Numbered from the stretch's first letter, positions 28,726-57,052 are shown. The stretch: 64,000 nucleotides of DNA from Candidatus Magasanikiibacteriota bacterium (GCA_041675185.1 JBAYUH010000001.1:10869-74868); one strand, 5' to 3'. Numbers and translations: made by a program. The notes: generated by a model not told the origin, from the letters alone.

Positions 28726-28800
28726 TAAAGTCTTTAAAGTCCTTAAAGTCTGTAAAGTCAAAAGTAACGACTTTATAAACCAAATGGATTTTAGACTCTA
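28726..28800. repeat. AAAGTC-iteron palindromic element, copy 1
   Basis: ttaaagtc tttaaagtc cttaaagtc tgtaaagtc aaaagtaac gactttata: 9-nt phased TAAAGTC units followed by inverted GACTTTA. Confidence 0.7.
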
Positions 28801-29622
28801 TATTATATCTGCAAAATAACGTTCTACTTTTTTAAAATAAAAATAACCCAAAAAACAATAAACCAACATACTAATTGTAGAGACTTCCAGCAACAGCCAA
28901 TTTATTTGACCAACACCCAATATCACAACTCTAGCAGTATCTATTACACCAGCCATAGGATTCAACCCCAAAATCCATCTAAATTTTTCACTAACAATAC
29001 TGACTGGGTATATCACTGGCGTAATAAAAATCAATAATTGAATAAAAAACGGCAAAACAAATCTGACATCACGATATTTGACATTCAAAGAACCGAATAA
29101 CAAACCAATACCCAAAGTAGAAAAAATAGTCATTATTATTAATAAAGGAAAAAATACTAAACCCAATAAAGATGGTATATAATGATAAAAAATCATCATA
29201 CCAACCAAAATTATACTAGCAATCAAAAAATCTACTATATTTGTTATAATTGAAGAAATAGGCAAAATAATTCTAGGAAAATAAACTTTGGTGACAATTT
29301 TTTCATTTTCCATAAAAGTATTACTCGCATGTGTCAAACCACTAGAAAATAATGTCCAAAATATCAAACCAGTGTACACAAAAATAGGATAAGGAATTCC
29401 ATCTGATGGCATCTGTGCCAATCTGCCAAAAAAAATAGTAAACACAACCATAGTAACAAATGGTTGAAAAATCGCCCACAAAGCACCTATCGCTGTCTGT
29501 TTATATTTTACTTTCAAATCACGCCAAGTAAAAAAATAAAACAAATCACGAAATTGCCAAATTTCGTTTAGATCTAGTTGCCACCACTTATTTTTTGGTT
29601 TGATTATAATTTCCATAGACAT
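28798..29622 (-). CDS. wzm: ABC-2 type transporter permease (Wzm/TagG family)
   Basis: 274 aa with 6 predicted TM helices. It is adjacent to wzt. Confidence 0.8.
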   Translation of the reverse strand: MSMEIIIKPKNKWWQLDLNEIWQFRDLFYFFTWRDLKVKYKQTAIGALWAIFQPFVTMVVFTIFFGRLAQMPSDGIPYPIFVYTGLIFWTLFSSGLTHASNTFMENEKIVTKVYFPRIILPISSIITNIVDFLIASIILVGMMIFYHYIPSLLGLVFFPLLIIMTIFSTLGIGLLFGSLNVKYRDVRFVLPFFIQLLIFITPVIYPVSIVSEKFRWILGLNPMAGVIDTARVVILGVGQINWLLLEVSTISMLVYCFLGYFYFKKVERYFADII

Positions 29623-29717
29623 AAGTCAAAAGTTTGTAAAGTCGAAAGTCTATAAAGTCCTTCGAGTTGCTAAAGTCATTACTTTTGACTTTCAACTTTA
29701 TGGACTTTATGGACTAT
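29623..29717. repeat. AAAGTC-iteron palindromic element, copy 2
   Basis: aagtcaaaag tttgtaaagtc gaaagtc tataaagtc ...gctaaagtc | ttttgacttt caacttt atggacttt atggactat. Confidence 0.7.
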
Positions 29718-29721
29718 TTTT

Positions 29722-29964
29722 TCACCACTCCCTCGTCTTCTCAATCGTCTTCATCTTTACTTTTTGATACAAATCCGTCGCTTTCTGATCCACTTCTGGT
29801 GAAAGCAAACGCAAAAGTTCATGCCCCAAAATTCTATATTGCTTACCAATTTTATTAGCACGAATAAGACCTTTTTTGAGTAGACGTTTCATGGTACTAT
29901 TACTCACTTTTAGAAGATCTTGAGCTTCACCAGTTGTGTAAACAGAATTTGGTTTGATTTCCAT
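29722..29964 (-). CDS. Small helix-turn-helix DNA-binding protein (excisionase/MerR-like HTH_17 family)
   Basis: 80 aa. YTTGEAQDLLKVSNSTMKRLLKKGLIRANKIGKQYRI is a typical HTH_17 pattern. It is flanked on both sides by AAAGTC-iteron elements. Confidence 0.6.
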   Translation of the reverse strand: MEIKPNSVYTTGEAQDLLKVSNSTMKRLLKKGLIRANKIGKQYRILGHELLRLLSPEVDQKATDLYQKVKMKTIEKTREW

Positions 29965-29968
29965 ATAA

Positions 29969-30068
29969 TAGTCAAAAGTTCATAAAGTCAAAAGTCTGCA
30001 AAGTCCATAAAGTTGAAAGTCAAAAGTTATTACTTTAGACATTATGGACTTTAGACTTTATAGACTAT
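29969..30068. repeat. AAAGTC-iteron palindromic element, copy 3
   Basis: tagtcaaaag ttcataaagtc aaaagtc tgcaaagtc cataaagtt gaaagtc aaaagtt | ttagacatt atggacttt agacttt atagactat. Confidence 0.7.
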
Positions 30069-30087
30069 AGTATAACAACAAGTATCA

Positions 30088-55356: not shown

Positions 55357-55471
55357 ACATTATAATAGTTAAAATTTGTAAAAAATGTTTTGTTTAAAAA
55401 ATTACAACTCTCAAATTACATTTTTTGTATATTGTGATTTGTTTGGAATTTGTTTATTTATAATTGTATAT

Positions 55472-56239
55472 TTAGTTTGAGTGTTTTTCAATAATTTCTC
55501 TAGCTAATCTTTCATAAGATTTTGCACCTTTGCCATGTGGTTCATAATGCAAAATAGATTTTCCAAAACTTGGAGCTTCAGCCAATCTCACAGTACGTGG
55601 AATAACAGATCGGAAAATATTGTTTGGGAAATATTTGTAAAGTTCATTCATGATTTCAGTGGATAATTTGGTACGTTTGTCAAACATAGTTAATACTGCT
55701 CCCAAAATACCCAAATCTGGATGAAGATTTGTTTTTACCAATTCAACTGTTTTCAAAAGTTGTCCAAGACCTTCCAAAGCATAATATTCTGCTTGAACAG
55801 GAATAAGTAATTCATGAGCAGCAACAAGACCATTGATAGTGAGAAGCCCAAGAGATGGTGGACAATCTATAATAATATAATCATAAGCATGACTTACTTC
55901 TGATAATAAATCTCGTAATTGAAATTCTCTATTTTCTACATCAACTAATTCTATAGACGCACCAGCCAAATTCTGTGTAGCTGGAGCAACACGCAAACCA
56001 TCGTGAGCAGTATTATAAATAATATCATGAATTCTCTTTTGTTTGGCCAAAGCTTCATAAATACCAGCTCCAACATTGTCTCTATCAATACCCAGTCCAC
56101 TAGTAGCATTACCCTGTGGATCCAAATCAACAAGTAACACAAACTTCCCCATTTCAGACAAAAAAGCAGCTAAATTGATAGCTGTAGTGGTCTTACCTAC
56201 TCCACCCTTTTGATTGACAACTGCAATAATTTTTGACAT
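55472..56239 (-). CDS. parA: Chromosome partitioning ATPase ParA (Soj)
   Basis: MSKIIAVVNQKGGVGKTTTAINLAAFL deviant Walker A. Confidence 0.9.
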   Translation of the reverse strand: MSKIIAVVNQKGGVGKTTTAINLAAFLSEMGKFVLLVDLDPQGNATSGLGIDRDNVGAGIYEALAKQKRIHDIIYNTAHDGLRVAPATQNLAGASIELVDVENREFQLRDLLSEVSHAYDYIIIDCPPSLGLLTINGLVAAHELLIPVQAEYYALEGLGQLLKTVELVKTNLHPDLGILGAVLTMFDKRTKLSTEIMNELYKYFPNNIFRSVIPRTVRLAEAPSFGKSILHYEPHGKGAKSYERLAREIIEKHSN

Positions 56240-56538
56240 ATTTTTTTATAATCCTAAGCCAACGAAACAAGGCAAAAGATAAATTATCTTCTAAAAAATT
56301 TAATATAAATCTAACTAATTATAAGTATACCAAATATTGACAAAAATCACAATAATCTATATAATTCTTGCATTGTTAAATATGCCCGAATGGCGCCCGT
56401 AAAGTAGAGACTACCGTCTCACTTTTGGGCTCACGGATTAAAGGCAAAAAATTTATCATAAATTTTTACTAAGGGCATCAAGCAGTGAGCTACGAAGTAA
56501 GCCCTACTGCTTGACGGAATTGTTAAATTTATATAATT

Positions 56539-56787
56539 ATGCACTACGTTTACATTTTAAAAATGTCTAACGGAAAATTATACACAGGAAGATCAGATGA
56601 TTTAAAAAGACGTATCATTGAACATAATAGTGGAAAAGTAAAATCTACAAAAAATAATAGACCTTTAAAATTGATTTATTACGAAGCATTTATAGCAAAA
56701 GAAGATTCAATTAGAAGAGAAATGTATTTGAAAACAAGTACAGGAAAAAGAATGCTAAAATTACTTCTTAAAAAATCAAACAACTAA
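56539..56787 (+). CDS. Stand-alone GIY-YIG nuclease family protein (URI domain, about 82 aa)
   Basis: MHYVYILKMSNGKLYTGRSDDLKRRIIEHNSGK has GIY (VYIL) and YIG (LYTG) motifs and the conserved R/E/N residues. Confidence 0.75.
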   Translation: MHYVYILKMSNGKLYTGRSDDLKRRIIEHNSGKVKSTKNNRPLKLIYYEAFIAKEDSIRREMYLKTSTGKRMLKLLLKKSNN

Positions 56788-56791
56788 ATAT

Positions 56792-56873
56792 GCCCGAATG
56801 GCGGAATTGGTAGACGCGCACGACTCAAAATCGTGTTCCTTCGGGAGTGAGAGTTCGATTCTCTCTTCGGGCA
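56792..56873 (+). tRNA. tRNA-Leu (anticodon CAA), long variable arm, no encoded CCA
   Basis: Folded by hand. Acceptor GCCCGAA/TTCGGGC + A73, D-arm GCG-GAATTGGTAGA-CGC, anticodon stem CACGA/TCGTG with loop CTCAAAA, variable arm TTCCTTCGGGAGTG, T-arm GAGAG-TTCGATT-CTCTC. Confidence 0.85.
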
Positions 56874-56963
56874 CAAATAGATAAATAATAAATGTGAGAG
56901 TTCTTGCCATGAAGTGAGACGGAGTCTCTACTTCTGTGGCGATTCTCTCTTCGGGCACACAAT

Positions 56964-57052
56964 TTAGTCAAAAGTCTAAAAGTCCATAAAGCCAAAGGTC
57001 TCTAAACCAAATGACTTTATAAACTTTTAACTTTATAGACTTTTGACTTTAC
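56964..57052. repeat. AAAGTC-iteron palindromic element, copy 8 (degenerate)
   Basis: tagtcaaaagtc taaaagtc cataaagcc aaaggtc ... tgacttt ataaacttt taacttt atagacttt tgacttt. Confidence 0.6.

Follow-up and report, generated by a model that had tools for sequence, protein, structure and literature searches.

The stretch of DNA analysed here (the window) comprises 64,000 nucleotides of a Candidatus Magasanikiibacteriota bacterium (GCA_041675185.1, JBAYUH010000001.1:10869-74868), has a G+C content of 31% and is identical in sequence to part of the 65.8-kb metagenome contig k141_235866 (ENA ERZ27247358); this genome is viewed throughout via this one 64-kb contig stretch. It carries a glycan locus with the minus-strand genes Wzy_C, 4HB, gmd, fcl, HTH_17, wzm and wzt, and a family of palindromic elements composed of short AAAGTC and GACTTT units. 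By 4HB we denote the gene and protein of the four-helix-bundle family PF05635, also called 23S_rRNA_IVP ("23S rRNA intervening-sequence protein") or S23p. A sequence-only reading of the window had reported eight copies of the AAAGTC elements; all eight were present, six of them in the consecutive junctions Wzy_C / 4HB / gmd / fcl / HTH_17 / wzm / wzt, as it had described. The window contains one intact 4HB cassette (32272-32763), one decayed cassette (31196-31262) and six two-arm hairpins, which are probably relics. The features are listed below, with the minimum free energy (MFE, kcal/mol) and its z-score against 200 shuffles.

32719-32763, minus strand: 5' arm of the intact 4HB cassette, reading TAGTCCATAAAGTCTGTAAAGTCCATAAAGTCGAAAGT on the minus strand, then the 4HB start codon
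32376-32723, minus strand: cargo gene for a 115-aa four-helix-bundle protein, PF05635 by Pfam assignment
32272-32378, minus strand: 3' side of the cassette, in which an AAAGTC arm on the inside is joined through a loop to a GACTTT arm of five units (MFE −40, z −7.2)
31196-31262, minus strand: decayed cassette at the gmd/fcl junction, with the 5' arm and the opening eight codons of 4HB (MSINKFED), 92% identical to 32700-32763 (direct repeat D12)
31075-31190, no strand assigned: G+C-rich palindromic multi-hairpin element in the place expected for the 4HB body (MFE about −57)
29969-30068, minus strand: gene-less hairpin, fcl/HTH_17 junction (MFE −28.5, z −5.7)
29623-29717, minus strand: gene-less hairpin, HTH_17/wzm junction (MFE −27.1, z −4.5)
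28718-28800, minus strand: short gene-less hairpin, wzm/wzt junction (MFE −22.2, z −3.8)
41358-41500, no strand assigned: full hairpin in the divergent region between a sigma-70 gene and a gene for a 113-aa helix-turn-helix (HTH) protein, HTH113 (MFE −46.5, z −6.1)
56964-57052, no strand assigned: full hairpin directly 3' of a partial duplicate of a tRNA-Leu 3' end (MFE −37.7 on the minus strand, −24.6 on the plus strand)

The repeats are far denser than base composition would give. TAAAGTC occurs 38 times in the window versus 12.6 ± 3.3 times in dinucleotide-preserving shuffles (n=100), none of which reached 38, and AAAGTC and GACTTT together amount to 59 per kb within the 745 bp of elements versus 0.49 per kb outside them. 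The long imperfect hairpin that had been proposed holds for the six full copies, with MFE from −22 to −46.5 kcal/mol and z-scores from −3.8 to −8.2; none of the 200 shuffles folded as well. The units follow one another at 7 bp (17 cases), 9 bp (23 cases) or 8 bp (one case) and never at 10-11 bp, a spacing that contradicts the suggested helical phasing at about 10 bp and, with it, the idea that the units occupy one helix face. No terminator-like sites were found within the elements, and Rfam at the gathering threshold over the whole window detected tRNA-Leu only, with no rRNA gene.

As had also been observed, the elements include start or stop codons or come within a few bases of them, and some provide these codons to the neighbouring genes. 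The 4HB stop codon is the TAG of the first TAGTC in the element 32272-32378, which terminates in GGACTAATTTT with the ATG of gmd immediately next to it. The 3' end of the hairpin 29623-29717 creates an additional ATG shortly upstream of the wzm start, and the hairpin 28718-28800, which has a degenerate 5' arm and five ACTTT units, contains the wzm stop TAG within its first bases. Open reading frames (ORFs) that appear to translate the repeats, as FDFTDFKDF and RLYGLY, do exist; they are artefacts of mechanical ORF listing.

Two of the copies had been taken for near-identical versions consisting of a right arm alone. Their near-identity was borne out (92% over 64 nt), but on the transcribed strand they are the 5' arms of 4HB genes. 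The upstream array of the intact cassette (32719-32763) is 92% complementary to 32275-32312, the last arm of the 3' element (inverted repeat I13), which places the 4HB gene in the loop of a large stem. The closest solved structure to the 4HB protein is XCC0516 (PDB 2gsc, E 1e-12), and the 4HB protein has more than 8000 homologues under the source name 'four helix bundle protein'. In the decayed cassette the truncated duplicate of the gene (MSINKFED..., 31196-31219) breaks off into the G+C-rich palindromic element at 31075-31190. This element is 88% identical over 100 nt to L205:638-734, a sequence of a related genome that is located within an AAAGT hairpin loop at another locus; because the two are shared at such identity but at different loci, we regard the G+C-rich element as a second, separate mobile element nesting in the first. 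At a further locus, L059, the AAAGT hairpin likewise has a G+C-rich hairpin in its loop, a shorter one.

The related genome, L205, comes from another sample, encodes proteins 61-90% identical to those of the window and has the same gene order. Both carry the cassette at the Wzy/4HB/gmd junction. At gmd/fcl, where the window has the decayed cassette with the G+C-rich element, L205 shows a full hairpin without a gene, and fcl takes its start codon from the last unit of this hairpin (GACTTTATGGACTATTCT). The window hairpins at fcl/HTH and HTH/wzm have no counterpart in L205, where the gaps measure 38 nt and 1 nt, respectively. At wzm/wzt a complete second 4HB cassette in L205 stands against the short hairpin with its degenerate 5' arm in the window; the order wzm-4HB-wzt is found as well in two more distant Patescibacteria (L127, L128). 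The position of the hairpin between the sigma-70 and HTH113 genes is conserved in L205, and the loop there also holds the G+C-rich element. Furthermore, L005, a contig recovered from a third sample, matches the window at 99.95% identity over fcl-HTH-wzm but has the gene-less hairpin of the L205 type, with its fcl start codon, at gmd/fcl; an exact look-up of the gmd protein, for the left boundary of this strain polymorphism, returned no record. Gain, loss and degradation of elements take place within the time in which strains and species diverge. The sequence-only reading had pointed to orthologous junctions in a relative of the same gene order as the place to look for conservation, and conservation fails there: L205 is empty at fcl/HTH and HTH/wzm, and this absence argues that the elements are selfish insertions. 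The filled junctions of the window and the empty ones of L205 are too diverged for exact alignment; a TA on each side of the insertion is possible and may belong to the unit.

The family had been thought to be specific to this genome, a view that is refuted by AAAGT arrays and 4HB cassettes in other Patescibacteria and in Bacteroidales. A forward scan with the pattern AAAGTCN3AAAGTCN3AAAGTC, in one genome per species, matched at least 119 loci, many of them from these two groups. Among the 119 listed loci, five contain a 4HB gene, in each case in the order AAAGTC units, 4HB, GACTTT units, and the encoded proteins are 51-71% identical to the window protein. Two of the five are from Bacteroidales; in each the 4HB gene is flanked by tdh and kbl, and the protein shares 67-70% identity with that of Magasanikbacteria. 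Gene-less palindromes of AAAGTC units occur at many further listed loci in other Patescibacteria and in Bacteroidota; one such hairpin is part of a 134-nt insertion that replaces the loop at a helix tip (a tetraloop) in the 16S rRNA gene of another metagenome-assembled genome of Magasanikbacteria.

The reverse set was collected through the 4HB protein (60-75% identity) and comprised 80 metagenomic loci, 72 of which were cassettes with complete flanks; units were counted over 120 nt upstream and 140 nt downstream of the gene. AAAGT occurred on average 4.18 times upstream versus 0.64 times downstream, and ACTTT 0.62 times upstream versus 4.15 times downstream. At least three AAAGT upstream together with at least three ACTTT downstream were present in 48 of the 72 cassettes, the opposite polarity in one. 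The sixth base of the unit, which is C, T or A depending on the locus, covaries across the two arms (T/T 21, C/C 16, mixed 11). Over all loci, the gene-less hairpins had the same polarity, with 23 in the order AAAGT then ACTTT and none in the opposite order. Where two arms lay 80-2500 nt apart, 46-48 of 57 pairs enclosed a 4HB gene and the remainder had ordinary host genes between neighbouring elements; no other recurrent cargo was present between the arms of these 57 pairs. Cassettes insert between co-oriented genes, 4HB having the same orientation as its upstream neighbour in 58 of 60 cases. The arm-to-arm duplex energy was −46.9 kcal/mol for the sense and −45.6 kcal/mol for the antisense strand (38 versus 34 cassettes; Wilcoxon p = 0.26).

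Several loci depart from the common form. One-armed arrays of 11-17 GACTTT/AAAGTC-type units with no complementary arm nearby were seen at L030:3674-3810 and 6058-6200, at L036:62-146 and in L007, L014, L089 and L117, and some Bacteroidales arrays consist of variant units such as AAGTCCCTAAAGTCTCTT. At L067:3883-4254 the 4HB gene is intact only when TGA is read as a sense codon (table 25), which implies that the cassette is present also in a recoded lineage, probably Gracilibacteria or Absconditabacteria. A phage origin was considered and rejected: 120 viral loci match the unit pattern, but 108 of their 146 arrays (74%) lie inside long ORFs, with no hairpin and no 4HB gene. These matches are coding 9-nt repeats and served as a negative control; 4HB relatives were not found in viral contigs.

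The layout extends beyond the AAAGT unit. Distant 4HB genes (31-43% protein identity), located on cyanobacterial, Riemerella and Azospirillum plasmids, share this arrangement with other units: GGGAAAA/TTTTCCC, GGGAACA/TGTTCCC, GGTGACA/TGTCACC, GGGTGTA/TACACCC, CAGGAGT/ACTCCTG, AAGGTTY and GGACRGA. The architecture with such 7-8-nt units is kept in cyanobacteria, Flavobacteriia and Alphaproteobacteria, usually with the cassette between co-oriented genes, e.g. cas6/cas4 or cmr2/cmr3; a 4HB gene inside cas operons has been noted earlier (PMC3936711). The unit type follows the clade of the 4HB protein, not the host phylum. Since unconstrained DNA would be randomised at 60-70% protein identity, the AAAGT core common to Patescibacteria and Bacteroidales argues for constraint; with this core kept across phyla and the unit type changing with the protein clade, the constraint would act on the unit sequence and not on base pairing alone.

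Few unexplained small genes are as common in Patescibacteria, Bacteroidota and cyanobacteria as those for the PF05635 'four helix bundle protein'. The closest known counterparts of the window cassette are the rRNA intervening sequences (IVSs) with an S23p ORF of Leptospira, Coxiella burnetii and Brucella (Ralph & McClelland 1993; PMC4990558). Both have a PF05635 protein as cargo, both have complementary flanks that pair into a stem with the ORF in its loop (the window arms being 92% complementary around 4HB), and neither has a movement enzyme of its own. The Coxiella 23S IVS conforms to the cassette layout: RNase III cleaves a 28-bp stem whose loop contains the S23p ORF, and the ATG is preceded by GACAGAT heptamers, three or four of them depending on the strain (PMC4990558), so that tandem short units upstream of the start codon are also a common trait. 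In addition, one AAAGT-armed member of the family sits in a 16S rRNA helix tip. In contrast to the IVSs, which reside in 16S or 23S rRNA helices, all eight window copies are intergenic, between protein genes of an operon; they mostly lack an ORF, they are built from 7- or 9-nt units around an AAAGT(C) core, and their excision by RNase III is putative. In the candidate phyla radiation (CPR), rRNA genes carry 23S_rRNA_IVP ORFs in 16S and 23S insertions as well as many short uncharacterised insertions without an ORF (PMC11270868). The latter come from the same host group, are below 200 bp and lack an ORF, and one AAAGT hairpin is such an insertion, but the study describes neither unit arrays nor copies outside rRNA.

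Taken together, the AAAGTC elements probably form a family of selfish stem-loop elements of the IVS type that spans several phyla and includes intact cassettes, decayed cassettes and relics. A complete unit consists of a 5' array in which 7- or 9-nt units share the core AAAGT(C), a PF05635 gene of about 115 aa resembling S23p and Avd, and a complementary 3' array of (G)ACTTT units; the gene-less hairpins would derive from such cassettes through loss of the gene. The elements are presumably transcribed within the operon mRNA and may fold there into compact AU-rich stems, which would join the upstream stop codon with the downstream start codon, so that an insertion does little harm. The window stems are long enough to be RNase III substrates, and RNase III may cleave the polycistronic mRNA at the element-bearing junctions, as in the homologous rRNA IVSs. 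Sequence-specific recognition, most plausibly by the 4HB protein itself, would maintain the AAAGT core.

Several observations weigh against such an origin. No target-site duplication was resolved, and the window contains no recognisable transposase, integrase or reverse transcriptase. Among the listed loci, which were selected by pattern, only five of 119 have 4HB within 8 kb; 183 arrays are solo (one-armed), and about a third of the arrays lie inside long ORFs. The positions at Wzy/4HB/gmd and sigma/HTH113 are conserved between the window and L205, which could mean age or function, and the arrays of the Pseudanabaena homologue are direct, not inverted. The sense and antisense duplex energies are alike, so that there is no G-U signature of RNA-level selection, and equally good pairing of the arms on both strands (p = 0.26) speaks against a purely RNA-level function. 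Furthermore, the distribution in this genome is seen over one 64-kb contig.

The sequence-only reading had favoured either iterons or a cooperative repressor array. On such a view the AAAGTC units would be cooperative sites for a DNA-binding protein, the neighbouring HTH_17 proteins, that regulates the glycan locus. A short core in tandem repeat would suit this function, as would the HTH_17 gene between two elements and the second HTH gene about 170 bp from the element 41358-41500, but a spacing of 7 or 9 bp is not one helical turn (~10.5 bp) and the arrays come as inverted pairs. Moreover, the HTH_17 gene of L205 is in place with no element on either side (gaps of 38 nt and 1 nt), tblastn with both HTH proteins found no HTH_17 homologue near the arrays of the 119 listed loci, no plasmid or replication context is present, and the same units recur in contexts as unrelated as a 16S rRNA gene, tdh/kbl in Bacteroidales and sites adjoining tRNA genes. 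We consider an operator or iteron function very improbable; the HTH_17 gene is a resident of the locus independent of the arrays, being kept without any array in L205. The alternative of REP- or MITE-like hairpins (repetitive extragenic palindromic sequences; miniature inverted-repeat transposable elements) fared better in part: multi-copy palindromes with presence/absence polymorphism were found, but neither the transposase-driven nor the host-RNA version fits in full. In the latter, the host would have selected the hairpins, in the manner of REP or intercistronic stabilisers, for segmenting the long operon mRNA and tuning the differential stability or translation of its wzt, wzm, fcl and gmd cistrons. 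The elements do lie exactly between the cistrons of one transcription unit, and they form strong hairpins, none of them terminator-like, with stop and start codons at the stem base. Their lack of conservation at orthologous junctions of L205 and the difference in the 99.95% identical strain L005 are hard to reconcile with host selection, as are the missing sense-strand G-U bias and the same elements in non-operon and rRNA contexts, and the association with a cargo gene argues for an origin centred on the element, which makes this reading improbable.

The other version treats the copies as classical MITEs moved in trans by a transposase encoded elsewhere, either IS630/Tc1-like and targeting TA, or of the IS200/IS605 type or a REP-associated tyrosine transposase (RAYT, Y1) recognising hairpins, with 4HB as an occasional passenger. 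The termini TAGTC...GACTA would allow a TA to flank each side, and multiple copies, presence/absence polymorphism and a second small palindrome nested inside are all in keeping with it. Like MITEs, the window elements have terminal inverted repeats and many short non-autonomous copies; an autonomous relative encoding a transposase was not found, neither in the window nor adjoining any of the ~80 cassettes, and no unambiguous target-site duplication was seen. The arms consist of variable numbers of units instead of a fixed inverted repeat, 4HB is the sole recurrent cargo with a polarity fixed 48 to 1, and the unit type tracks the 4HB clade across host phyla, so that we give the transposase version little chance. 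Dispersed imperfect intergenic palindromes that are co-transcribed, polymorphic between strains and able to affect mRNA processing are also known as REP/BIME (bacterial interspersed mosaic elements), ERIC (enterobacterial repetitive intergenic consensus), Correia/NEMIS, RUP/BOX and MITEs. The window elements differ from these in arms of variable-number 7- or 9-nt units, in a full form that carries 4HB and not a transposase or RAYT, and in a unit core shared across phyla; REP/BIME are 20-40-nt palindromes accompanied by RAYT (Y1), whereas the elements here measure 80-145 nt and are built from units. Under the preferred reading, that of an IVS-type selfish family, the elements at the glycan locus are most likely passengers and not regulators dedicated to this locus.

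In TIGR arrays (tandem interspaced guide RNA) a unit of ~36 nt contains box C/D motifs and two variable spacers of 8-12 nt, and a Nop-domain Tas gene lies beside the array (PMC12045711). A TIGR-Tas identity was rejected for the AAAGTC arrays, whose 7- or 9-nt units vary at 1-3 bases and which have no Tas gene adjacent.

A far wider generalisation, which we hold to be rather unlikely, is that PF05635 genes with inverted arrays of 7-9-nt units constitute one distinct, very widespread class of mobile elements, in which a pentameric Avd-like protein recognises tandem units in the transcript or DNA of its own element and promotes spread, perhaps via a reverse transcriptase recruited in the manner of Avd; the rRNA IVSs, the ORF-less CPR insertions, the palindromes of the window and possibly cyanobacterial heptamers would then be stages of decay. 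The chief argument for this generalisation is the AAAGT core shared by Patescibacteria and Bacteroidales cassettes, along with unit types that go with the protein clade. PF05635 is homologous in sequence and fold to Avd of the diversity-generating retroelements (PMC10053308). Neither a reverse transcriptase nor a template repeat or variable repeat adjoins the cassettes; they are not such retroelements. The cyanobacterial short tandemly repeated repetitive (STRR) arrays, reportedly described by Mazel et al. in 1990, are said to be intergenic tandem heptamers of heterocystous species; the cyanobacterial 4HB genes seen here are flanked by inverted heptamer arrays. The canonical STRR1-3 heptamers were absent from the 4HB flanks examined in cyanobacteria, and the STRR link is a lead, not a result.

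Some further observations concern the surroundings of individual elements. A near-consensus promoter-like site (TTGACA-18-TATACT with a TG extension) lies at 30069-30098 on the minus strand, where it overlaps with the fcl end; the site is conserved in L205. As the hairpin start (30068) directly follows the −10 box, the hairpin would be located at the extreme 5' end of an HTH-wzm-wzt transcript. The hairpin 41358-41500 falls in a region, ~41224-41620, where the gene orientation switches: genes at 1368-41224 are almost all on the minus and those at 41620-51644 on the plus strand. After the tRNA-Leu(CAA) gene (56792-56874), its T arm and 3' end recur as a partial duplicate (56893-56960) whose T loop is split by a 37-nt palindrome (TTGCCATGAAGTGAGACGGAGTCTCTACTTCTGTGGC), and the AAAGTC hairpin begins directly after the duplicate; arrays adjoin tRNA-like 3' ends likewise in L030 and L102.

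Other palindromes built from units are present in the window. A second intergenic family occupies 6909-7072, 39102-39243 and 58086-58223, with partial copies at 8478-8527 and 43602-43670; its units resemble TTTAAAATT and CAAAATT, a T-rich arm precedes an A-rich one, and the MFE ranges from −23 to −32 kcal/mol. A related sequence was found in the metagenome locus L193 (90% over 53 nt). Single-copy hairpins at 46772-46860 and 60380-60482 likewise have arms of short units (CAAATTACAAAATCCAAAT; TAGTAAA/TTTACTA heptamers), with MFE from −24 to −31 kcal/mol, and most intergenic gaps of more than 60 nt in the window seem to be occupied by some unit-built hairpin.

IVSs with an S23p ORF have been on record since about 1990, and that PF05635 genes are scattered through genomes is known already. 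What appears to be unreported is that inverted short-unit arrays of fixed polarity are the general rule, that gene-less relics occur at operon junctions and that several phyla have the AAAGT unit in common; full-text literature searches, which included the exact unit strings, yielded no description of inverted short-unit arrays as a rule.

The structural rule is that a 4HB gene lies between inverted short-unit arrays, purine-rich upstream on the sense strand, with a unit that tracks the protein clade, and that gene-less relics are scattered through operons and rRNA genes. Many 4HB homologues are found on contigs below 2 kb, and the rule explains some of these assembly breaks, as well as the spurious ORFs and start codons at element junctions. 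For annotators it carries the warning that an element can supply the start codons of neighbouring genes such as fcl. Moreover, it yields hypotheses that can be tested, namely that the 4HB protein would bind the units of its own cassette and that RNase III would cut operon mRNAs at the elements.

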